Below are positions 2,426 to 54,299 of a stretch of DNA of 64,000 nt, one piece after another. Both the position numbers and the translations under genes were made by a program. The notes below the pieces were generated by a model. That model was given only the letters and a program-made list of their open reading frames with translations, was not told the origin of the DNA and ran no database searches. Where the stretch lies: assembly GCA_963616935.1 (NCBI GenBank), contig CAVEMS010000002.1:64396-128395 (forward strand). The letters are read 5' to 3'. This DNA is from a bacterium. GTDB taxonomy: Bacteria > Bacillota_I > Bacilli_A > RFN20 > CAG-826. Within the stretch, counting starts at the first letter, position 1; every line of letters starts with the position of its first letter.

Positions 2426-3334
2426 TTATAGATTCAATAGAATCACGGAAATCAGGCCAAGTGCGTAGCCGATATATTGGATCTTCGAAAATCTCTCCTT
2501 AAACAGGATAAACGCCGTTAGGAAAGTGAAGACAAGCCCTGCCCCAGATATAACGGGAAAAACCACGGCTGCTGGCGCTCTCGATACCGAATACATCGCG
2601 GAAAGGTTTAGCAATGCGTTCATCGTGCCCGATCCGGCGCCAAACATCAAAGATTGCTTCATTCCGTCTTTTATTTGTCTATGTTCCGTGATCAAAGAGA
2701 CGACCAATATGCCAACGCAGGCAATAGCCAATGAAATTATCATGAATTCGTTCTTTTTTTCGCCGCCATAGGTCGTTTGCTGAGCGGTTTGAATTATGGA
2801 AGTAAGCCCATTGGTTATCGCGGCGACGGCAATGAAAATTACCCATTTGACGGTGCTTTTCTTAGCGGCATTATCATTCGTTTCGAGCGCTTCATCTTTC
2901 GATTTTTCGTCATGAGCGCATTTCCTTCCGCCAAGATTCACCAAAACGAGCGCAACCGCTAGCACGACTAGCCCTATCACAAAGCATACGGAAATGGGAT
3001 TATGCAAAAATATTATCCCATAGAAGGTCGGCATAATAAGCGATGCGGAAATAATGAGCCCCGATAAAGACAGATGGCCGATTTTAAGCGCGTATGTCAG
3101 CGTGACCATGCAGACCGCGTACGCTAAACCCATTAATGCTCCATATTTCAAGAGACCGACGTCAAAAGAAAACTTAAAGCCAGAAATCGCAACAAAAACC
3201 ACGAGAGCAAAAAAGGTCGAAGTAAAAGCGAAAAACATCGGACATGATTTTGTAAATCCGCGTTTGAACGCATTTTGCAGCGACATCGCAAGCGCTCCGC
3301 CGACAAGCAGCAGAATGGTTATGAAAGTTTCCAT
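2426..3334 (-). CDS. polytopic membrane protein, probable DMT-superfamily (EamA-like) transporter
   Basis: 302 aa with about 10 predicted TM helices arranged as two 5-helix halves. No catalytic motifs were found. Confidence 0.4.
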   Translation of the reverse strand: METFITILLLVGGALAMSLQNAFKRGFTKSCPMFFAFTSTFFALVVFVAISGFKFSFDVGLLKYGALMGLAYAVCMVTLTYALKIGHLSLSGLIISASLIMPTFYGIIFLHNPISVCFVIGLVVLAVALVLVNLGGRKCAHDEKSKDEALETNDNAAKKSTVKWVIFIAVAAITNGLTSIIQTAQQTTYGGEKKNEFMIISLAIACVGILVVSLITEHRQIKDGMKQSLMFGAGSGTMNALLNLSAMYSVSRAPAAVVFPVISGAGLVFTFLTAFILFKERFSKIQYIGYALGLISVILLNL

Positions 3335-3623
3335 GGTTCTATATCAACGATTGATAAATATAAGATGATGATATCGGATTGCAAAGCAATACGAATTGAT
3401 TGTCTAAGAATGCGGTTTTATCAATTTGCCGTCATGAACGAGACGACTGGCAAAAACCGAGCTCGAAGCCTTCCTTCGCCTATGGTTTAGTTATATACGG
3501 GTTCATAGAAAGTTTGAAAAGAAAACAATCATTTACCGAATATTGGCAATGATTTTGTTTTATTGAACGCCTAGATCGATTCGTTATTGACAGGATAATG
3601 TAAAATATAAGGTAGTAAGAAAC

Positions 3624-4721
3624 ATGAAATTGCTGATAGATAACAAAAGGAACATCATGCTGGACGCCTTGAAGGGATTGGCGATTTTTTTGGTGGTTTT
3701 AATCCATGTCCTGCAACGCACCATCCCACATTTTGTTTCAGATGATCATTGGGGCGTTCAAATCATCTATCTTCTTTGCGTGCCAATCTTTTTTTATCTA
3801 TCCGGCATCAGTTATTCATACAAAAAGGAATTATCCTTTGTTGAATTTATCGTAGATATTTTCAAAAGGACCTTGATGTATTTTTGGCCTTTCCTGTTTT
3901 TTATTCTTCTTAGAATCGGGATATACAATCAATGGGAGAATGTATCTAAAGCATTTGAAGAATTGATGGAATATCCAGTCAGCGGTTTATGGGTATGTTG
4001 GATACTTTTGTTTGTTACTTTGGCTTTGGATATCGGGCTATTGATCGGCAAATTATATCCAAAGCTAAAAAAGTTATTTGTGTTTATCGTGTTCGCTATC
4101 GGAATAACTATTTTGATTATTCTTAGAAACAACAACACAATCACTAGCGATCATTTCGTCGGCTATAACTACTTTATATTGTTCGCTCCGACGTTCTTTG
4201 TCGGTTATTTGATCGGCGATTATTATTTCAAAATCAATAAACCGATTATTTCATATATCGTTTCTATCCTTTGCTTTGCCGGCTTAGTCGTCCTTTGCTA
4301 CTTCAAAAGAAGCTTTATGGGAGTGCGTTTCTTCGACGATATCGGCTATAACTATTTGGCTATAATTCTCTGTGTCGGCGTATACCTAGGAATAATCGAA
4401 TTATTTAAATTGGCAAAGAAATTGACGGATGTTATCGCCATCAGTGGGAAATACACATTAGAGATGTATTTCGTGCATTTAATCGTCCTAAAAGCGTTTG
4501 CCGGATTATTTTATGATTCTTGGATAATTACCTTATTAGTGGTGATCGGTTTAACGCTTCTATGCTACGCCTCCACCACCGTTGTTATGCTAATGACGTA
4601 TTATGTGCCGTTCTTACACTTTTTATTATTCGGCAAGCACTTTAGCAAATACGAATGGGAAGATGAATTTTGGGAAAAGATTGCATTTAAAAACAAAACT
4701 AGCTCTATAAAAAGGGATTAA
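3624..4721 (+). CDS. acyltransferase family 3 (OatA-like) membrane O-acyltransferase
   Basis: N-terminal RNIMLDALKGLAIFLVVLIHV matches the Acyltransferase_3 signature (R..LD.LRG.A...V...H). About 10 TM helices; 365 aa. Confidence 0.65.
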   Translation: MKLLIDNKRNIMLDALKGLAIFLVVLIHVLQRTIPHFVSDDHWGVQIIYLLCVPIFFYLSGISYSYKKELSFVEFIVDIFKRTLMYFWPFLFFILLRIGIYNQWENVSKAFEELMEYPVSGLWVCWILLFVTLALDIGLLIGKLYPKLKKLFVFIVFAIGITILIILRNNNTITSDHFVGYNYFILFAPTFFVGYLIGDYYFKINKPIISYIVSILCFAGLVVLCYFKRSFMGVRFFDDIGYNYLAIILCVGVYLGIIELFKLAKKLTDVIAISGKYTLEMYFVHLIVLKAFAGLFYDSWIITLLVVIGLTLLCYASTTVVMLMTYYVPFLHFLLFGKHFSKYEWEDEFWEKIAFKNKTSSIKRD

Positions 4722-4766: not shown

Positions 4767-4841
4767 TGGTTGCGGGGAGTGGACTTGAACCACCAGCCTT
4801 CAGGTTATGGGCCTGACGAGCTACCATTGCTCTACCCCGCG
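4767..4841 (-). tRNA. tRNA-Met (anticodon CAT), initiator-like
   Basis: Cloverleaf read directly from the sequence: acceptor CGCGGGG/CCCCGCA with a C1-A72 mismatch, T8, D-stem GAGC/GCTC with A11:U24, anticodon loop CCCATAA (CAT), T-arm GGTGG-TTCAAGT-CCACT, discriminator A and an encoded CCA. C1-A72 and A11:U24 are hallmarks of the bacterial initiator tRNA. Confidence 0.85.
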
Positions 4842-10311: not shown

Positions 10312-10369
10312 ATTTTTAATCGTGGGGCTTTGATGTGTTAAAAAGAAAAATCGACCGTTACTTAGATTC

Positions 10370-11692
10370 GTGGAAAAAAGCGACGACCGCAATCCTTTGA
10401 TCGTGTATGGCGCAAGACAAATAGGAAAAACGACATCGATTAGAGAATTCGGCAAGAAATACTCCCGATTCATCGAAATAAATTTCGTCGAGCATCCGGA
10501 ATACAAGCAAGCCTTCTCGACTTTCGACGTGGAACAGATAGTCAAACGTCTATCCTTCCTGAATCCGAATTTCGTCTTCGAACCGCACAAAACGCTGATT
10601 TTCTTCGACGAAATACAGGAATGCACGAACGCCACCACTTCGTTGAAATTCTTCAAGTTAGACGGAAAATACGATGTCATCTGCGCCGGCTTGGCACTCG
10701 GCGTCAACACCACCGCCATTTCAAGCGTCTCCGTTGGCTATCGCGACGAATTCGTCATGTATCAACTCGACTTCGAAGAATTCCTATGGGCATGCGGATA
10801 CGACGACGAATTGACGGCTTATCTCCTTAAGTGCATGTCCGATGCAAAACCGCTTGAAAATCTCTATTACGAAAAAATGCGCGAGCTCTATAGGGATTTT
10901 ATCGTTTTAGGCGGATACCCTAAGATAGTTTCGAATTTCTTTTCCAACAATCGGAACTATAGCAATGTTCTTAAGATGCAAAAACAATTGCATGGCGACT
11001 ACGTTGACGACATCTCCAAATATTTAAGCGGAATCGACATCGCCAAGGCGCAGCGAATGTTCAAATCGATTCCTACGCAACTTGCGAAGGAAAATCACAA
11101 ATTCCAGCTTTCCAAATTGGGACATGGCGCAAGGTTCAATGAATATTACGGCGTCAGCGAATGGCTTCGCGATTCCGGATCCGTCTTGATTGCGAACAAT
11201 TGTCAGCTTTCCTTGCCACTAAAAGGCAACGAGGAAATCGATAATTTCCGCATGTATTATTCCGACACCGCACTACTCGTGGCGGCGCTAGACGATGAAT
11301 CCCAAATGGATTTAAGAAACAACATGAATTTCTCGATTTATAACGGGGCCGTTTATGAATCGATAATAGCCGCCGAGCTCAAAAAACAAGGCTATGACCT
11401 GTATTTTTATCGAAGCCAAGACTCGACCGTCGAACTCGACTTCATCGTTCGCTTCATGGATGAGATAGTGCCGTTAGAAGTCAAATCCAAAAATGGGCGT
11501 GCCGTTTCTTTGTCGACCGTCATCGCAAACGACAAAATCAATGTTTCGCACGGCATCAAGTTCGCCGATGCAAATATCGGCTGCTCCAACGGAATACTGA
11601 CTTTCCCTCACTTCCTAGCGTTCTTACTTAAGAGATTTTTCGACGAAAAGAGAAAATCGCGCTCGCTAACATCTGCCGATATCAAGGCATAA
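10370..11692 (+). CDS. AAA+ ATPase of the COG1373/DUF4143 family, paralog 1; the N-terminus is apparently disrupted by a 1-nt frameshift in an A6 tract
   Basis: Walker A GARQIGKTT, Walker B LIFFDEIQE and the C-terminal DUF4143-like block ELDFIVRF...PLEVKS are present. A GTG at 10335 opens a frame (VLKRKIDRYLDSWKK) that stops at 10398-10400, and adding one A to the A6 run at 10374-10379 fuses it in frame to this ORF. Confidence 0.7.
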   Translation: MEKSDDRNPLIVYGARQIGKTTSIREFGKKYSRFIEINFVEHPEYKQAFSTFDVEQIVKRLSFLNPNFVFEPHKTLIFFDEIQECTNATTSLKFFKLDGKYDVICAGLALGVNTTAISSVSVGYRDEFVMYQLDFEEFLWACGYDDELTAYLLKCMSDAKPLENLYYEKMRELYRDFIVLGGYPKIVSNFFSNNRNYSNVLKMQKQLHGDYVDDISKYLSGIDIAKAQRMFKSIPTQLAKENHKFQLSKLGHGARFNEYYGVSEWLRDSGSVLIANNCQLSLPLKGNEEIDNFRMYYSDTALLVAALDDESQMDLRNNMNFSIYNGAVYESIIAAELKKQGYDLYFYRSQDSTVELDFIVRFMDEIVPLEVKSKNGRAVSLSTVIANDKINVSHGIKFADANIGCSNGILTFPHFLAFLLKRFFDEKRKSRSLTSADIKA

Positions 11693-42008: not shown

Positions 42009-42029
42009 TCGTAAATCGATAGCAATCAA

Positions 42030-42091
42030 GCAATCTCATTGGCAATCGGATGGATTAATCCAGTAACCGCCGATGGAGATTGCTTTTTTCA
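42030..42091 (+). terminator. intrinsic terminator after ackA-nrnA
   Basis: GCAATCTC ... GAGATTGC followed by TTTTTTC (42085-42090); the stem extends imperfectly (CCGCCGATGGAGATTGC). Confidence 0.5.
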
Positions 42092-42989
42092 TGGCGCGCT
42101 GATGCATTTATATCGATAATTAGATGCGTTTGAATCCGGTGGCGATACAAACATCGGCAATCAAAAACGACCATTCATACGAGCCGTTTATGATGCTTAT
42201 GCGTTGTACAGTGTTTCTTTATTTCAGGTTGCCTTTATTCTTGAAGACGGTATGTAGCTCAATGAGTTCAAGAAGTTCTTCACGTTCAACGCCTTCAAAT
42301 GCAATTCGAGATATGTAAGAATCATCTGCTTTTCATTGCGATGTGGCATATTTGAAGACAATTCAAGATTCGTACCCCCATGGCTTCGCTAATCAAAATG
42401 TTTTTTGCATCATTTCTTTCAACGAAAATTAATCTTTCGGAAAATCAAATAATCTTTCGGAAGATTAATAAAAGCGACAAATAACACAATGAATTTCGTC
42501 TTCGTCATTTTCGACATCTTATATTCTGAAACATACCCATATATTTGGATAAATTGCACGGGTCGCCATTCTCGAACAGATTGAAGTTAGCTTAGCTTTG
42601 TTTGTGGTTTTTCTCGCAAAGAATGAAGGATTAGAATAGGCGAACCACACGCACCGCACCTTTTTCGATTGATGATTTTTTTATGTAAGATCACAATGCG
42701 AAGTTTTTTGTTTTCTTGATGCCACAGTCGAGACGCATCACAAAAAGCTTTCAAACAATGAGATGATGAATAATAAAAACATACTAATATTATTTTTAAT
42801 ATAATTATTACTTTTACATTTAATAATGTTTAATTAATTTATAATGCATAATAACGAACTTATTTATGCAAATGCTTACTTATATATTTCATTCTTTTTT
42901 GGTGAACCATAACAAAATTGTTAATCTATTTATGTTGTAATTATATTATTTAGAATATATTATATTAAAGAAAAAGAGGTTATATTTAT

Positions 42990-44324
42990 ATGCGAATAGT
43001 CCGGACAATCGAGAAATCGTTAATCAAATCGCTCGAGGAAAGCAACAATATATTGATTGAAGGCCTGCCTTTCATTGACAAAAAATTTTTGATTGAATCA
43101 CTCCTTTCAGAAGGTAAATTCGGATGTTATAAATGCGACTTAAACAATTATTCGCATATCGATAAACTGACTTCCTATTTAAGCGAAAACAGCCAAAGAA
43201 AAGGCGATAAAAATTCGAAGAAAAACGTCTTAATTCTGCACATCGAGAAAAACATCGGTTTATTGAAAACTTTACTAAATCAAAATAATGCTGATTTTCG
43301 CTACATTTTTGTTAGCGATGTAATACTTGATGGTTTCCAAAACTCCTCTAATTTAGACGTATTCATGATCAAACCCCTTAACTTTTTAGAATTTCTTTAC
43401 TCATGCGGCCTAAAGAAAGACGATTTGGAAAAATACAAGAATCGGGCGTTTGAAAGTATCAACGAAGAGAATGAGTTGACTTCAAAACTATATTCATTAT
43501 TGGATGTCTATTCACTTATCGGCGGCATTCCTAAGTGCGTGGACGTCTATTTATCTTCCGGAAACCTAAACAAAGCTCTGAAAGCGAGAGACGAAGCCTA
43601 CGCCGAATTCAACGAATCGTTCCTTTCGCTATGCGCCGCTTCTTTGATGTCATCCGACGCCAAAGATATAAACGCGATCCGAAACGCCAAAAAAGCCTTC
43701 GAATCGATTCCTCCATATCTCTCTAGCGATTCATACGATTATAAGTTCTCTTTCATATCTCCTTCGTCAAGGAAGGATTCATATATCTCATCTTTCAATT
43801 GGATAAGAAATAACGGATACGTTTGTTTATCCACTCGTGCGAACCCTTTTGTTCCAGCCACGAATGCCGAAGCAAACTCCTTTAAGGCCTATCTCCCTGA
43901 TATCGGCCTAGAAATGTCCGCTTTGAAGGTTAATGACATCAATCCTCATAACGGTCGTCTGATCGATCTTTTGATTGCCGATTCGCTATTCAAAAATGGT
44001 GCATCGCTAGAGTACATATTCGATTCAAAAACTCATGAGAAAGTCGATTGCGTCGCCTTGCGCGATGGGCATTATGAGATATATAAGACGTCTGGCGACA
44101 AGAAATGCGCCTCGCTATATTCGAAAACGGCCTCCGTTCTAAACGCTTCCAATGTCTATAACGTTATGTATGACACAAAGGGAAAGAATCAAAAAGAGCC
44201 ATTTAAGAACGTCGATGTCCTCGACGTCATGTTATCCATATGCGAATCCGAAAATAATGCGCATCAAAAAGAAAAGGAAGATATCCAAGCGATAGAAATC
44301 GATCCAGATTCCTTTTTGTCCTAA
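42990..44324 (+). CDS. degenerate COG1373/DUF4143-like protein (paralog 3) with eroded Walker A/B motifs, predicted to be ATPase-inactive
   Basis: Same length (444 aa) and C-terminal DUF4143-like block (EYIFDSKTHEKVDCVALRDGHYEIYKTSG) as paralogs 1 and 2. The Walker A position reads GLPFIDKKF and the Walker B position LILHIEKN. The local GC is about 37%, against about 47% for the window. AAGAGG RBS. Confidence 0.5.
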   Translation: MRIVRTIEKSLIKSLEESNNILIEGLPFIDKKFLIESLLSEGKFGCYKCDLNNYSHIDKLTSYLSENSQRKGDKNSKKNVLILHIEKNIGLLKTLLNQNNADFRYIFVSDVILDGFQNSSNLDVFMIKPLNFLEFLYSCGLKKDDLEKYKNRAFESINEENELTSKLYSLLDVYSLIGGIPKCVDVYLSSGNLNKALKARDEAYAEFNESFLSLCAASLMSSDAKDINAIRNAKKAFESIPPYLSSDSYDYKFSFISPSSRKDSYISSFNWIRNNGYVCLSTRANPFVPATNAEANSFKAYLPDIGLEMSALKVNDINPHNGRLIDLLIADSLFKNGASLEYIFDSKTHEKVDCVALRDGHYEIYKTSGDKKCASLYSKTASVLNASNVYNVMYDTKGKNQKEPFKNVDVLDVMLSICESENNAHQKEKEDIQAIEIDPDSFLS

Positions 44325-46280
44325 CTATTCCTCTTCGCTATATATAAGTCCGAACTTATGTAAATAACAGATGACGACGGTTCCCCAGCCATGGCAAAGG
44401 CTTCCGGCGTTTTCGAAGGCTCTCCAACCATCCATCGTCTCCATGAAACAAGTCGCCCCCTCTTTCTTTTGGGCGTCCATGATTTCATTTATATCGCTAA
44501 GGATATATTCCCTCGCGGATGGATTATCCGCCTTAAGAATGGCATCGTATAAAAACCTTCTCATGCTTAAGCTCGTCGGCACGAGGCCATATTTCACTGG
44601 ATCCATTATCTTCTTCGATATATCGAGTTCCAGGCTTTTGGGAGCGATGCCGCTAAGGATGGCCAAGGAATTACCTAAGACATTGCACGATGGATTCAAA
44701 TCGCTCATATGATATAAACCTTTATCCCAATCGAAGAAATGATCATGAGATTTAATGCGTATATCATTAATTAAACAGGCGTTATCGGATGATATTCCTA
44801 CCTTATTAGATAGATAATCATAAGCTTCTAACGCAATGACGAATAAGGAATTGATGACGATGTCGCTCTCTTTTTTTCTTTTTTCCATCAATCCATCCGC
44901 GAGTCCGTCCATCCATTCGTAGAAATTCCATTTGCCTTCGCCTTCGAAGGTCATCGCCAAACCGTTTTCCATATTGTCTTTGAAAGCGGATACTATCTTT
45001 TCTATCCTTGGAAGCGCCTCATAAAGGAAGGATTTATCGCCTGAAGCGTCGTAATAGCTCTTAACGGCCAAGATATAGAAAAGAGAGAAGCTAGGTATCG
45101 TAAGCGAGACATTGCTAGGAGCGCATATAGGAAGGAGTCCATCTTCTCTATCGTCCACGGCGAATAGCCTCAGAGAACTTCTGATCTGCTCAAGGTTCTT
45201 AAAAGCGAGAAAGCCGGCATCAATTTGATTAAGACTATCCAACGCGTATAGGCATTGCTCACGCCATGGGCAATCCTCGTAATGCTCATGATAGCAGCAT
45301 TCGAGGGTATAAACGGCCATGTCGTATATCTCCTTAACTGAATCATCGACAAACGCCCATTCCCTCTTATCGAACGGATAGACGCACGGATATAAGGAAA
45401 TCGACGGTTCGATATCGAAATCATCGTCTCCTATCACCTCAATATAACGGCATCCAAGCCTAAGAAACCCTTCGAAGAATCTGTTTCTTCCTTTTTTTAG
45501 TTTGACGTCGATTGAGAAGTTCCTGTTTTCGATCAAATACACCAATTCATTATCATTTAAGTGTTCAGCGTAGGTTATCTTGATCTTTCTTTCTTTCTCG
45601 GATTCGATATCGAGCGCCAAATATCCGACCGTTTCCTTCCCTAAGTCGTAGCGGTATCTTCCTTTACCGATATGGATAGGCTTAGGAGATAATGGCGAAA
45701 GGAGCTCGCATTTCTTATTTCTCCTTAGCTCAGGCGATGCGTCGTTCCTATCGACTATGACCGCATTAACATACTTTAAATCATTCTCATCTTTCGTTAG
45801 ATCGATGCTTAGTCTGTATCCCAGTTGCGGCGTTATTCTTTCCTTAAGTCCCGATAGATATCTATTCGATTCGGCTACCAAGGAGTCCTCACTAGACACA
45901 TATAAGATCTCATCGCCTTTCGAGATAACGAATATGATCGACGCCTTCTGGGCGAAGTAACTGCTAAAGCCATCGCTGCCTAAGTGATAAGCGTAGATTT
46001 TGAAGGTGTTGGTGCCACGCTTCGCCTTAAGAGACACCGAATCAACGATTGGATGCTTAGGATACGACGGGCTTTGCGAGAAGGAGGACAGCTCATCATT
46101 CAAAAAGAACATGTAGTTCGTGTCGGCGGATATATCTAATGTGACATCGGAGTCGCAATCGAGCACGAAAGAACCTTTTATGACGATATATTGATCGTCG
46201 AATGATTCCTTGGACCATATCCATTTCGCATTAGACAGTCTGTCGTTCATCGATTTGTTCTCTATAGCGTAGTTATCCAT
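44325..46280 (-). CDS. six-hairpin glycoside hydrolase, alpha-L-rhamnosidase-like (GH78-related)
   Basis: 651 aa with N-terminal AKWIWS, an EDCPWREQ motif resembling the GH78 DCPQRDER block, and C-terminal SLCHGWGT shared with the 59836-61455 gene. Confidence 0.45.
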   Translation of the reverse strand: MDNYAIENKSMNDRLSNAKWIWSKESFDDQYIVIKGSFVLDCDSDVTLDISADTNYMFFLNDELSSFSQSPSYPKHPIVDSVSLKAKRGTNTFKIYAYHLGSDGFSSYFAQKASIIFVISKGDEILYVSSEDSLVAESNRYLSGLKERITPQLGYRLSIDLTKDENDLKYVNAVIVDRNDASPELRRNKKCELLSPLSPKPIHIGKGRYRYDLGKETVGYLALDIESEKERKIKITYAEHLNDNELVYLIENRNFSIDVKLKKGRNRFFEGFLRLGCRYIEVIGDDDFDIEPSISLYPCVYPFDKREWAFVDDSVKEIYDMAVYTLECCYHEHYEDCPWREQCLYALDSLNQIDAGFLAFKNLEQIRSSLRLFAVDDREDGLLPICAPSNVSLTIPSFSLFYILAVKSYYDASGDKSFLYEALPRIEKIVSAFKDNMENGLAMTFEGEGKWNFYEWMDGLADGLMEKRKKESDIVINSLFVIALEAYDYLSNKVGISSDNACLINDIRIKSHDHFFDWDKGLYHMSDLNPSCNVLGNSLAILSGIAPKSLELDISKKIMDPVKYGLVPTSLSMRRFLYDAILKADNPSAREYILSDINEIMDAQKKEGATCFMETMDGWRAFENAGSLCHGWGTVVICYLHKFGLIYSEEE

Positions 46281-46782
46281 ATAACGTTCTTTCCTGTTCG
46301 TCCATCAATATGCACCATCTAGAGAGAATGGTCAAAAGAATGGCGAAGATAAACAAAAATGCAATGAGGATAGGCAATATTTTCTATGCGGTTCATAGCA
46401 TCTATTTGATTTAGCTTGCAGACGATAGTTTTTGCAAAAAGTTTTCGAGTTATTTAAGACAACGCTGCTCCCAAACCGTTTCTTTTCAGCTCGCGCCGAT
46501 CGCCTAGAAAAGTCAAAAAACTACCGCGCGGGCCAAAAACGCAATTTGGCTTGGCGCGAAAACCTGGCGAAAGCGAAATTTGCTAAGCCGAATTGAGCCC
46601 GCCTTTCGAAAGCGGAAATTACTTTTGCAATTTGCGAAAAAAATGAATCTTAATTTTCGAAAATAAAAGCCACAAAAAGAGTTTTTTGTTTCCTTCTATG
46701 GTTTTTGTTTCGGTCTTATTTTAATAGACTTAATAAACCTTTTTCACAAAAAGCTCTAATACGATTATTAATGTTTTTCCTT

Positions 46783-47720
46783 TTATTGCATATCTTCGAA
46801 TTCTTCAAAGATTTCTTCTATATATTGGTTTCTTTTAAGCAAACAATTCGTAATTTTGTCGATCGCTTTGTCATCCGTCATTCGTTGCAATCTCTTTTCT
46901 GCCAATTCCCTTTTGCCTTCTGGGGCGTTTTCCGGATTCAATGGGTCAAATCTCGTACCGATATTTTTAAGATAGCTCCTTAAATCATCCTTATTTCTTA
47001 TATTATTTTTTTCATAAAATTTAGGACCCCAACCGAATAAAAGGTTTCTGTGTATATCAATGGATAAAAATGGCCTTCATGACAGCCTTCTTTACTAAAA
47101 ACCTCAGAAATTCCGACAGAACCAATCATTGGCAGTCCAAATTTATAAATAAGCGGAATCATAAATGCAAAATAATTTCCCGCTTCTTTAAGGCCCATCA
47201 ATTCAAATGGGAGCTCTCTTAAGATTTTATGTTCATCCGTCGGGTTATCGTAAAAATCGTCGGGAACGTTTTCTTGAATCCTTTTGTTATTCATATATTC
47301 CGCAATGTTCATATACTGCTCAAACAAATACATTTCGTTCTCATTGAATGACTCATTAATATACCTACCTACCTACGGTTTTTAGATATCCGGACCCGTA
47401 TTCAACGAAATCGCCATCGCCACGAACAATTTCTTTTAAATCCGTCATTCTCATTCCGTTTTTAAATAAGAACTTTTCGATTCCCTCGCTTGTTGCTGTT
47501 ATGAAAAAACAACATGAGTCAATTTATTAATTTCATCATAAGACTTTGTTTGCACTTCCTTTAATGCATCGGATTCGCTCATCCCATGATAAAGCAACAA
47601 TGCGTAATAGTGCGCTAATTTACCTGGACAGAGTTTTAGTTCCCCAGGGACTTCGTAAGCCTCTTCAGAAGATATGAGATCTTCCATTTCTTCATCATTT
47701 TCATCAAAAATTTCTAGCAT
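46783..47720 (-). pseudogene. hypothetical gene split into four frame segments by shifts at T6, (TAGG)n and A7 tracts
   Basis: Segment A is 47499-47720 (73 aa). Segment B is about 47378-47523 in the +1 frame (…SEGIEKFLFKNGMRMTDLKEIVRGDGDFVEYGSGYLKTVGR). Segment C is 46998-47333 (111 aa). Segment D is about 46783-46997 (…NNIRNKDDLRSYLKNIGTRFDPLNPENAPEGKRELAEKRL…DMQ*). A joins B with +1 nt in the T6/A6 tract at 47504-47509. B joins C on loss of one TAGG unit at about 47362-47377. C joins D with +1 nt in the T7/A7 tract at 47006-47012. The region is about 33% GC. Confidence 0.55.
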
Positions 47721-47986
47721 TTTTTCTTTTTTCGCTCATAGGCATAAAAATCACCTCTATACATTAATTCGTAATTAAATTTTAGATTTTATATTCCGTT
47801 TTGGAAACTATTAATAGAAAAATGTAAATTTTATACTTAACTTCTCGCTTTAACCACTTTCGGAATTTCTCTTTTAAAGAACGTTGTAGGCGATGATAAA
47901 TCATCGGCCTTTAAGCGCGAAAAAAAGGTCACGAAACAAATGCAATGTAGAATCCGGCAGCAAATGACAGCCATCAAAAAACGGCT

Positions 47987-48916
47987 TTATCGGCTTTTGC
48001 CTTTACCCAAAAGAGGCGCGAACCAAAACAAAGATCCGAGATTTTCTCCCCTTCTTTCCTTCGAATAACGATCCATCATTGCTTTGAATAGCATCATGCA
48101 AGCGGCAGCAAACATATAGAACAAATCTATGTCATCCGTGTTTTGAATGACGTTCATATGGGCGAACGATAGGTAATCCCCGCCACCGACCTCAACCATA
48201 TCCCATATGACGGATGCTGAGATTTCGCGATAATCGTCAAGTTCTTTGTCGGACAATCCCTTCTTATCGTCCTTATAGATATTGAATATGCATCTCTCGG
48301 TATTGGTCCTAACGAAATAACCGGTCTTATTGCCTTCGATTATGAGTTCGAAATCGACACCCATAGAGATCTTGGCTATCTTCTCCTTCTTCTCGTTTAA
48401 TAGCCATAACGCAAGATTCTTTCCCTTAGAAAAACGAAGGTAATAGAACGGATCCTCGTCTTTGATGATGCGAAAGCAATATCCTCCCTCATCCCTCATC
48501 TTGTAATAAACGTTCTTATCAGGGCCGAACGCAGGATGTTTGAAGATCTGGCCACTTAAACACATAGAGCCATCAACCGCGTTAGTCAGGCTAAACATCC
48601 GTTCGGCTTCCTTGTCACTAAGAAGTTTGAAGTCGTTTTTAGTATTGGTAGCCTTTTTATTCCAATACTCGGCACTACCTTTGATTATCTTCTCGATCTC
48701 TAGGAAATTCGTGGCCGCATATCTGAAATTCTTAATGGCCTCGATAGCGTCGTCGAAATCGGCGATATGGTTAAGCCTATCGAACGCCGCCTTATAGAAA
48801 GAATCACGATCGATTTCGTCCGCTTTAGCGATATAGCCAAGCCCTTCGAAGATGGTCTTGACGTTAGTTAGAAGCACCTTCGTCGATATCGGCATGACAG
48901 TCTTTCTCTTTCCCAT
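47987..48916 (-). CDS. hypothetical protein
   Basis: 309-aa ORF with coding-like composition and no recognisable motifs. Confidence 0.5.
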   Translation of the reverse strand: MGKRKTVMPISTKVLLTNVKTIFEGLGYIAKADEIDRDSFYKAAFDRLNHIADFDDAIEAIKNFRYAATNFLEIEKIIKGSAEYWNKKATNTKNDFKLLSDKEAERMFSLTNAVDGSMCLSGQIFKHPAFGPDKNVYYKMRDEGGYCFRIIKDEDPFYYLRFSKGKNLALWLLNEKKEKIAKISMGVDFELIIEGNKTGYFVRTNTERCIFNIYKDDKKGLSDKELDDYREISASVIWDMVEVGGGDYLSFAHMNVIQNTDDIDLFYMFAAACMMLFKAMMDRYSKERRGENLGSLFWFAPLLGKGKSR

Positions 48917-49149: not shown

Positions 49150-49908
49150 TTATTTGCCAGCCGGAATCGGAGAGATCTTATTGTCCGCTTCGATGCCGCT
49201 AAGCTTATCCATATCGAAGGAAGGGATGTCGTTGCTATGTCTAAAGGAATTGCGGAAATCCGCTTTAAGCTCTTCGATCTTTAGCATCGCATCGCCATAA
49301 CGGCCGTATTTCGCGGATTCTATCGCATGGCGAGGAACGCCGAAGAGAATAAATAGCACGATCGATAAGGCAGCGGCTGCCATACCAAACCAATAGAGCA
49401 TGCCGAAGACGCCACCGCTAAGGACATCGGCGAGTTTCACCTCATATCCGTGGTTCCATATGCCAACCCCTAGGCAAGCGGCCCCGCCAATCAAAAGGAG
49501 CAAGAAGAGAATCGTGATCAAAACCGGCAAATGGCGCTTCTTCTTGGCTTTCAAGGCTTTGCAATATAGCAAATAGTTGTCATAGGTCATACGATTATAG
49601 ATATGCTCGGCCTGACGCCACTTCTGGAAGTCGTTTGCGAAGCGATTACGGCCATAGGTCATACGGACGTAGTTATCGACCGGCTCGTCGTTATGATGGA
49701 GGGCGAGCCCTAAGAAAGCCTCATCGGCCTCTTGCGGATAATAGAAATGAGCCATATCCGTCGTGCCCTCGATCTTGCCGTCCATCGAGCGTTGGAAATT
49801 GATTTCCTGCATCGTTATCGGGCGATAGCCGAAAGTCTGGAAAACGCGATGGAATTTGTTTTCCGATCCCTTTGGGATGTTTATCGTCTTGTAGTCGTAC
49901 TGATCCAT
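49150..49908 (-). CDS. hypothetical membrane protein (two TM helices), last gene of the hypB operon
   Basis: Two hydrophobic helices (LPVLITILFLLLLIGGAA ... GVFGMLYWFGMAAAALSIVLFILFGV). The preferred start is MDQYDYK at 49908 with an AAGGAGAGAGG RBS; the ORF track starts at 50028. Confidence 0.5.
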   Translation of the reverse strand: MDQYDYKTINIPKGSENKFHRVFQTFGYRPITMQEINFQRSMDGKIEGTTDMAHFYYPQEADEAFLGLALHHNDEPVDNYVRMTYGRNRFANDFQKWRQAEHIYNRMTYDNYLLYCKALKAKKKRHLPVLITILFLLLLIGGAACLGVGIWNHGYEVKLADVLSGGVFGMLYWFGMAAAALSIVLFILFGVPRHAIESAKYGRYGDAMLKIEELKADFRNSFRHSNDIPSFDMDKLSGIEADNKISPIPAGK

Positions 49909-50059
49909 ACCTCTCTCCTTATGTGGTTGTAATAGATTAACACAGATATTGGTGTTTTTGGGTCTCGAAGTGGGATGGTCGCCCCATCCGTATAGCGGCA
50001 TATCGAAGTCCGGGTCTAATATTGCCATATCGATGCCTCAATTGCCTCTAGCGCATGAG

Positions 50060-54005: not shown

Positions 54006-54299
54006 GCATTCGCCTTTCGTCGCATAAACGTATTCTACTAATTTTTAATAAAAATTAAAGAAATATACGAGCTTTCGCCATTTTTTCCGCATTTTCTGTC
54101 ATGAAGATCGGCATTTTTGCAACATTTTCCAACTATCTATTTTACAATAATATTATTTTGTATCTTTTGATATTGACAAAGATTACAAATAGCACTAAAT
54201 TGTTACTGCAACGATACAGAACGATTGTTGCATGTAAAAAAATAAGCCAAAGCCCATCGAAATAGCAATGATGGATAGACGGCTCAAAAAGGAGAACAT

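Follow-up and report, generated by a model that had tools for sequence, protein, structure and literature searches.

A minus-strand locus of the window, by which we mean the whole 64,000-nt stretch of DNA that was analysed, is most probably a polymorphic frameshift pseudogene of an accessory gene that was functional until recently and is now decaying, as judged from alignment with orthologues and with sister alleles of the same species. We infer loss of function here, and the stops that result from three of the lesions (lesions 1-3) remove conserved parts of the protein. The locus is neither an assembly-specific error nor a demonstrable on/off switch. Comparison of sister alleles reduces an apparent multi-site contingency locus to ordinary gene decay, which makes this a clean negative result.

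Segregating frameshift pseudogenes are an ordinary form of decay of bacterial accessory genes, and short homopolymers and repeats are the commonest sites of indels. The locus resembles other such pseudogenes in having intact orthologues, several small indels each with a premature stop, lesions that lie partly at short repeats, subsets of lesions that are specific to strains, and flanking genes that are untouched. It is unusual only in that public assemblies, MAGs among them, allow four decay stages of one gene to be lined up.

One gene in four frame segments

The first-pass annotation had read 46783-47720 as one gene split into four frame segments, and translation of the minus strand reproduces this (Table 1). 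Segments A and C lie in one frame and B and D in another (minus-strand translation of 46700-47800), with segment D made up of the last 72 codons of the ancestral protein and an out-of-frame overlap upstream. The tracts at which the breaks had been placed were all located, namely the T6 at 47504-47509, the GTAGGTAGGTAGGTA at 47362-47376 and the A7 at 47006-47012 (minus sense), and the three edits proposed there do yield a single 311-codon ORF, which is one residue apart from a real open allele (V71 versus D71 in P0017 of L004). At two of the three sites the proposed event is exact (TAGG x3.75 versus x2.75, and A7 versus A8), but the first edit is not a real event. Lengthening T6 to T7 restores the frame but yields Val, whereas the true change is the loss of an A before an unchanged T6. 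Moreover, the list of breaks was incomplete, for there is one more lesion, at the 5′ end (lesion 0).

Table 1. Features of the minus-strand locus, in window coordinates.
Feature	Position	Strand	Basis
Pseudogene, ancestral RBS and start to final stop	46783..47758	-	Frame translation, homologue and allele alignments
Ancestral RBS, AGAGGTGA	47751..47758	-	DNA conserved in L002, L003, L006, L007 and L008
Ancestral start ATG (47745-47743) with 13-codon dead-end frame MPMSEKRKNARNF and stop TGA (47706-47704)	47704..47745	-	Alignment
Lesion 0, 2-nt loss in A-rich stretch GAAAAAAGAAAAA	47721..47733	-	Orthologue DNA alignment
Segment A, internal ATG 47720 to TAA 47501-47499, 73 aa	47499..47720	-	Three-frame translation
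Lesion 1, 1-nt deletion junction, Asp-71 codon GAT	47509..47510	-	Allele alignment; window and L005
Segment B, ends at TAG 47367-47365 within expanded repeat GTAGGTAGGTAGGTA	47368..47523	-	Three-frame translation
Lesion 2, +4 duplication of TAGG unit, GTAGGTAGGTAGGTA	47362..47376	-	Allele alignment; window and L005
Segment C, end TAA 47000-46998, contains 111-aa ORF 46998-47333	46998..47372	-	Translation
Lesion 3, A7 where L004 and L005 have A8	47006..47012	-	Allele alignment; window and L001
Segment D, final stop TAA 46785-46783	46783..47076	-	Translation, homologue alignment
3′ flank travelling with the gene	46637..46782	-	87% DNA identity to L002 until 46637

A remote-homology search with the fused protein, as had been proposed, returned homologues that span all four segments: 15 were found (E = 1e-167 to 5e-72), mostly of 320-326 aa and with no frame break across the segments. 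Intact orthologues of 320-326 aa are P0001, P0003-P0005, P0008, P0009 and P0011-P0013, and the conspecific P0017 is intact at 311 aa. The restored product is likewise 311 aa when counted from the internal ATG, against ~320 aa in the orthologues. The product encoded in the window and in L005 is the 73 aa of segment A. Thus the longest N-terminal product of the window covers 73 of 311 aa, and most invariant columns of the alignment lie downstream of it.

Lesions 1-3 across sister alleles

Sister forms of the window fragments (P0017, P0002 and P0018) were taken from the 90%-identity cluster around these fragments. The collections searched thus gave four alleles with the window's own, three of which come from MAG or metagenome assemblies and are consensus sequences. 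The allele of L004 (Logan SRR13434666) has none of lesions 1-3 and encodes the open 311-aa form P0017. L001 (MAG GCA_963640725.1) has lesion 3 only and a 239-aa form, P0002, while L005 (MAG GCA_963620335.1) has lesions 1 and 2 only and a 73-aa form with one substitution, P0018. The window allele carries all three, plus lesion 0, which is common to all four alleles. Identity among the conspecific alleles in the flanks is 99.0-99.7%.

At lesion 1, GTTG(A)TTTTTTC loses its A, and the length of the adjoining T6 is unchanged. Intact alleles read GTTGATTTTTTC at this site; in the alignment they show CATGTTGATTTTTTCATAAC, against CATGTTG-TTTTTTCATAAC in the window and L005. The Asp-71 that is lost is conserved in all homologues covering the position. 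Restoring a frame by editing a homopolymer does not show that the homopolymer itself was altered; in this case the missing base adjoined the run. Lesion 2 turns GTAGGTAGGTA into GTAGGTAGGTAGGTA, that is 2.75 into 3.75 units, in codons Val116-Gly-Arg118, and lesion 3 falls in codons Lys236-Lys-Asn238 and gives a product ending in FMKKII. The stops lie 1, 0 and 2 codons past lesions 1, 2 and 3, respectively. We also considered lesions 1 (-1) and 2 (+4) as a compensating pair and rejected this, because a stop directly follows each of them in the frame that it creates.

The A7/A8 state is found on both haplotypes and, among the four alleles, is discordant with the haplotype of lesions 1 and 2 and of two SNPs. 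Variable sites were polarised with outgroups. At 46848 and 46863, L005 has the ancestral G (Val and Asp, as in the orthologues), whereas the window, L001 and L004 have a derived A (Ile and Asn); the L005 contig stops at window position 46802. This gives a four-gamete conflict: derived lesions 1 and 2 group the window with L005, but the derived states at 46863/46848 group it with L001 and L004. On these sequences, the conflict requires either intragenic recombination or a chimeric MAG contig end. A single crossover between 47088 and 47012 would explain the lesion combination of the window without recurrent slippage. Given this conflict, we withdrew the A7/A8 discordance as proof of recurrent slippage.

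The 5′ end and the course of decay

In L002, L003 and L008 the RBS is followed by ATG-xxx-ATG AGC GAA AAA GAA AAA AGA ATG TTA GAA, encoding MxMSEKEKRMLE. The A-rich stretch between the AGC and the internal ATG measures 15 nt (GAAAAAGAAAAAAGA) in these three and 13 nt (GAAAAAAGAAAAA) here. Lesion 0 thus hits the A-rich codons 5-9, and it is carried by 4/4 alleles of the species, including that of L004, which is annotated as intact. The RBS-served start is out of frame with the gene body in all four (window, L001, L004 and L005). The only start left for the gene body is the internal ATG at 47720, and this lacks a Shine-Dalgarno sequence. The L004 allele, 'intact' as it looks, is probably impaired too, because lesion 0 would uncouple the RBS-served start from the gene body. 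Lesion 0 might nevertheless be tolerated if the internal ATG is used; L004 would then be functional and the 239-aa protein of L001 possibly usable.

The restored allele has dN/dS of 0.14-0.19 against orthologues (0.19 against L002), and values among the orthologues are 0.24-0.32. Therefore, constraint on the gene lasted until recently, and the lesions are young and arose within the species. Promoter hexamers at the window locus are weaker than in relatives, a promoter-like TTGATT-N17-TATAAT being present in L002, L006 and L008 and a weaker version of it in the window.

We propose that the species ceased to need the gene, or expressed it poorly, perhaps from lesion 0 onwards. Frameshifts would then have piled up, preferentially at short repeats made by chance through lineage-specific codon changes, with lesions 2 and 3 arising by replication slippage at such repeats. 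Recombination between strains and/or recurrence at the A-run would have mixed the lesion combinations. If so, dying genes break first at short repeats that chance codon changes have created.

A small gene family and a single-gene block

The product is a soluble, acidic, mainly helical protein of ~311-320 aa that belongs to a very rare family of gut Clostridia. An exhaustive profile search of 1.84 billion protein representatives gave 42 hits at E <= 1e-3 and 7 at E <= 1e-30, and a genome scan places homologues in an uncultured Clostridia MAG and in Waltera intestinalis. Scans of genome and metagenome contigs for more alleles added only three more distant orthologues (L006-L008). Searches of Pfam, NCBIfam, PADLOC, PHROGs and the PDB sequence profile gave no significant match for the fused protein, and the family is absent from the viral contigs, plasmids and phages scanned. 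The AlphaFold2 model m25c11a5a0c59 has a pLDDT of 87.9, and Foldseek found no significant match to it in PDB or BFVD. Judging from this model, the fold of the family may be undescribed. A very small family with a confident structure and no solved or viral match may merit a study of its own.

The 46-48 kb segment has a GC content of 36.6%, against ~47% for the window. Positions 46637-47795 align at 87% identity with 4346-5507 of L002, an alignment that takes in the ORF, ~50 nt upstream and 146 nt downstream. This ~1.16-kb block carries its own promoter-like region, RBS and 3′ flank, and the neighbourhoods beyond it differ. From these alignments we read it as one gene that has passed between genomes as a block. 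No convincing terminal repeats were found around the block, and no neighbour is common to the compared loci as a conserved operon partner. The gene is accessory, since its locus is low in GC, its neighbourhood is unconserved and it travels with its own promoter and RBS.

In L008 a family member is directly preceded by a 317-aa tandem paralogue (2433-3386 and 3509-4471; 30% identity, hhalign 99.7%), and an rve-type IS transposase lies two genes away. Of such a paralogue, L002 keeps only a C-terminal remnant (~4140-4270). The L002 copy sits among BspA-type LRR_5 genes and adjoins an Imm26 gene, and in P0036 the family domain is fused to LRR_5; these LRR_5/Imm26 associations are too few for assigning a role.

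The pseudogene is preceded by two neighbouring genes, both of them unbroken in the window, L001 and L005. The nearer (47987-48916, -) encodes a 309-aa soluble protein with no family match, and the farther (49150-50028, -) a 292-aa protein that likewise matches no family and has a membrane region weakly resembling DUF2207_C. The 309-aa gene is unrelated both to the family and to the upstream gene of L008.

Phase variation

Contingency loci are known as tetranucleotide repeats in Haemophilus and Neisseria, as poly-G tracts in Campylobacter and as poly-A tracts in Mycoplasma. It is unlikely that the A8 run, and possibly the TAGG repeat, of the present gene are selected, reversible ON/OFF switches of this kind. 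The likeness, taking the PhasomeIt criteria (PMC6321876), is that one-unit changes at two coding sites toggle the frame among strains: two of the lesions add or remove a unit of a simple repeat, and strains are found with either length. A7 and A8 are found on both haplotype backgrounds, as a hypermutable switch would give. Moreover, a second gene of the window, encoding a DUF4143 ATPase, is A6/A7 polymorphic near its 5′ end, and its A6 state occurs on backgrounds separated by an A7 allele.

However, the tracts (A8/A7, TAGG x2.75/x3.75 and T6) are below the working cut-offs for phase variation by simple sequence repeats, which are at least 10 for poly-A/T and at least 5 units for tetranucleotides (PMC6321876), although these were set for Campylobacter and are called not absolute in that paper itself. 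Nor are the tracts kept in orthologues, relatives having A7, A5, A4 or no run, and reading GTAGGTAAG, GTAGGTGAG or GTTGGTAAG at the TAGG site. Both the doubled TAGG and the A8 are peculiar to this species; GTAGGTAGG uses an Arg codon where relatives have Lys or Glu, and A8 derives from a Glu>Lys change. Unlike the tracts of contingency loci, those here lie mid-to-late in the ORF, the A-run being at 76% of its length (codons 236-238 of 311) and thus far from the start. The product is acidic and cytoplasmic-looking (pI 4.7, GRAVY -0.55), with no predicted membrane segment or signal peptide and no segment with a mean hydropathy above 1.55.

The nature of the lesions also argues against a switch. 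Slippage could restore lesions 2 and 3 but not lesions 0 and 1. With lesion 1 in no repeat and lesion 0 fixed, the window allele cannot be switched ON by slippage, and the non-repeat deletion together with the 5′ lesion makes OFF permanent, unlike in contingency loci. The discordant A7/A8 pattern can in turn be explained by recombination. The contingency reading of the first-pass annotation is therefore not supported, since the tracts are short and not conserved in orthologues and a non-repeat deletion is beyond reversal by slippage. Nor is the genome, at ~47% GC, that of a Mollicute, one of the groups named with that reading.

The ATPase gene (10329-11692, +) is frameshifted at the A6 run at 10374-10379, 15 codons in, which splits VLKRKIDRYLDSWKK (the N-terminus, in one frame) from SDDRNPLIVYGARQIGKT (in another) and breaks the conserved N-terminus MLKRKIDxYLxSWK. 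GCA_963620335.1 (L009) has A7 and an intact 452-aa protein, while A6 is also present in GCA_963640725.1 (L010) and in the Logan assembly P0184. By three amino-acid differences the A6 alleles are parted by the A7 allele, and therefore the ATPase change recurred or was moved by recombination.

A low-rate switch at a short homopolymer is exemplified by the 7-C run of Mycobacterium tuberculosis glpK, where frameshifts are reversible. It seems quite improbable that dispensable accessory genes of this uncultured gut Clostridia species are turned on and off, reversibly and at a low rate, by short poly-A runs. Candidates may be A8 in the pseudogene and, close to the start of the DUF4143 AAA-ATPase, A7 (10374-10379); both share with the glpK run a coding homopolymer of 7-8 nt with the +/-1 variants both in natural populations. 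Unlike the case of glpK, the strain pattern here can be explained by recombination. The window allele would then be a switch that became stuck OFF and decayed further. If true, bet-hedging akin to phase variation would also occur in non-pathogenic gut Firmicutes, and at tracts below the lengths usually screened.

Sequencing artefact and programmed recoding

It is very unlikely that the gene is intact in the organism and that the breaks of the pseudogene are consensus errors of sequencing or assembly, such as long-read homopolymer under-calls. The A7 here and the A6 of the ATPase are indeed 1-nt shortenings of A-runs, a typical long-read error, and the window has the shorter tract at 3/4 other homopolymer differences from L001 and L010. 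However, each lesion turns up again in the assembly of another strain. L005, which has lesions 1 and 2 in common with the window, is set apart from it by 8 SNPs over 3.9 kb, and L001, which has A7, by 96 SNPs over 14.9 kb. The A6 of the ATPase recurs in L010 and P0184, and the window fragments P0016 and P0019 are on record from NCBI and Logan assemblies alike.

The first-pass annotation had taken the TAGG change not to be a typical artefact, which agrees with its occurrence in L005, an independent assembly that differs by SNPs. It had further taken two of the three events, along with that in the ATPase, to be single-base homopolymer under-calls. This is not supported at any of these sites: the first event involves no change of homopolymer length, A7 is present in the independent MAG L001, and the ATPase A6 is present in a Logan assembly as well as in GCA_963640725.1. 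Neither lesion 1 nor the +4 TAGG is a homopolymer error.

Homopolymers elsewhere in the window point the same way, in that 60 A/T tracts of at least 6 nt are unbroken in its other ORFs. The 56.7 kb of otherwise open ORFs hold 47 A/T6, 12 A/T7 and 1 A/T8 tracts and at most 1 frame break, against 3 in the 936 bp of the pseudogene; a post-hoc Poisson estimate for at least 3 of 4 lesions falling within 936 bp gives P ~4e-5. The ~11 kb of flanking genes have no coding indels against L001 or L005. Outside the gene, +/-1 indels are found in the T tracts at 54236, 46637 and 47976, together with a non-homopolymer 1-base indel at 47808 that adjoins a masked stretch of L001, and all four appear to be intergenic. 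As judged by these comparisons between assemblies, artefacts peculiar to this one are excluded, because all lesions recur independently and the flanking genes are free of frameshifts.

Length differences of 1 base between strains occur in apparently non-coding A/T runs of 5-8 nt at 54236, 46637, 47976 and 11690. Three of these look intergenic and one lies directly after a stop codon. They are background homopolymer polymorphism of the species.

Programmed recoding, whereby ribosomal frameshifting or polymerase slippage at the T6, TAGG and A7 tracts would join the segments, is exceedingly improbable: although the breaks lie at or beside slippery-looking runs, and lesions 1 (-1) and 2 (+4) sum to +3 so that segments A and C are in a common frame, 3-4 successive events would be needed, the T-run is out of X XXY YYZ register on direct reading of the sequence, an A-frame stop immediately follows lesion 1, and no shift site is conserved, the frame break being absent from all orthologues and from one conspecific allele that is otherwise identical in protein sequence. 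Given open conspecific alleles and unbroken orthologues, the supposed shift sites are derived mutations and not conserved signals.

Other features of the window

Only one further period-4 tract in the window reaches 13 nt or more, a (TCTT)3.75 at 45584-45598, within an intact 651-aa rhamnosidase-like ORF whose frame is unbroken. A search of the window with Rfam found only a tRNA (4770-4841) and no other RNA family. Lastly, no ORF exceeds 64 aa in the 981 bp of 42009-42989. This stretch lies ahead of the gene for a 444-aa DUF4143 protein (42990-44324), for which PADLOC gives a match to the candidate defence family PDC-S01 (E = 9e-23). The GC content of this 42-44 kb segment, 35% against ~47%, suggests an acquired islet.
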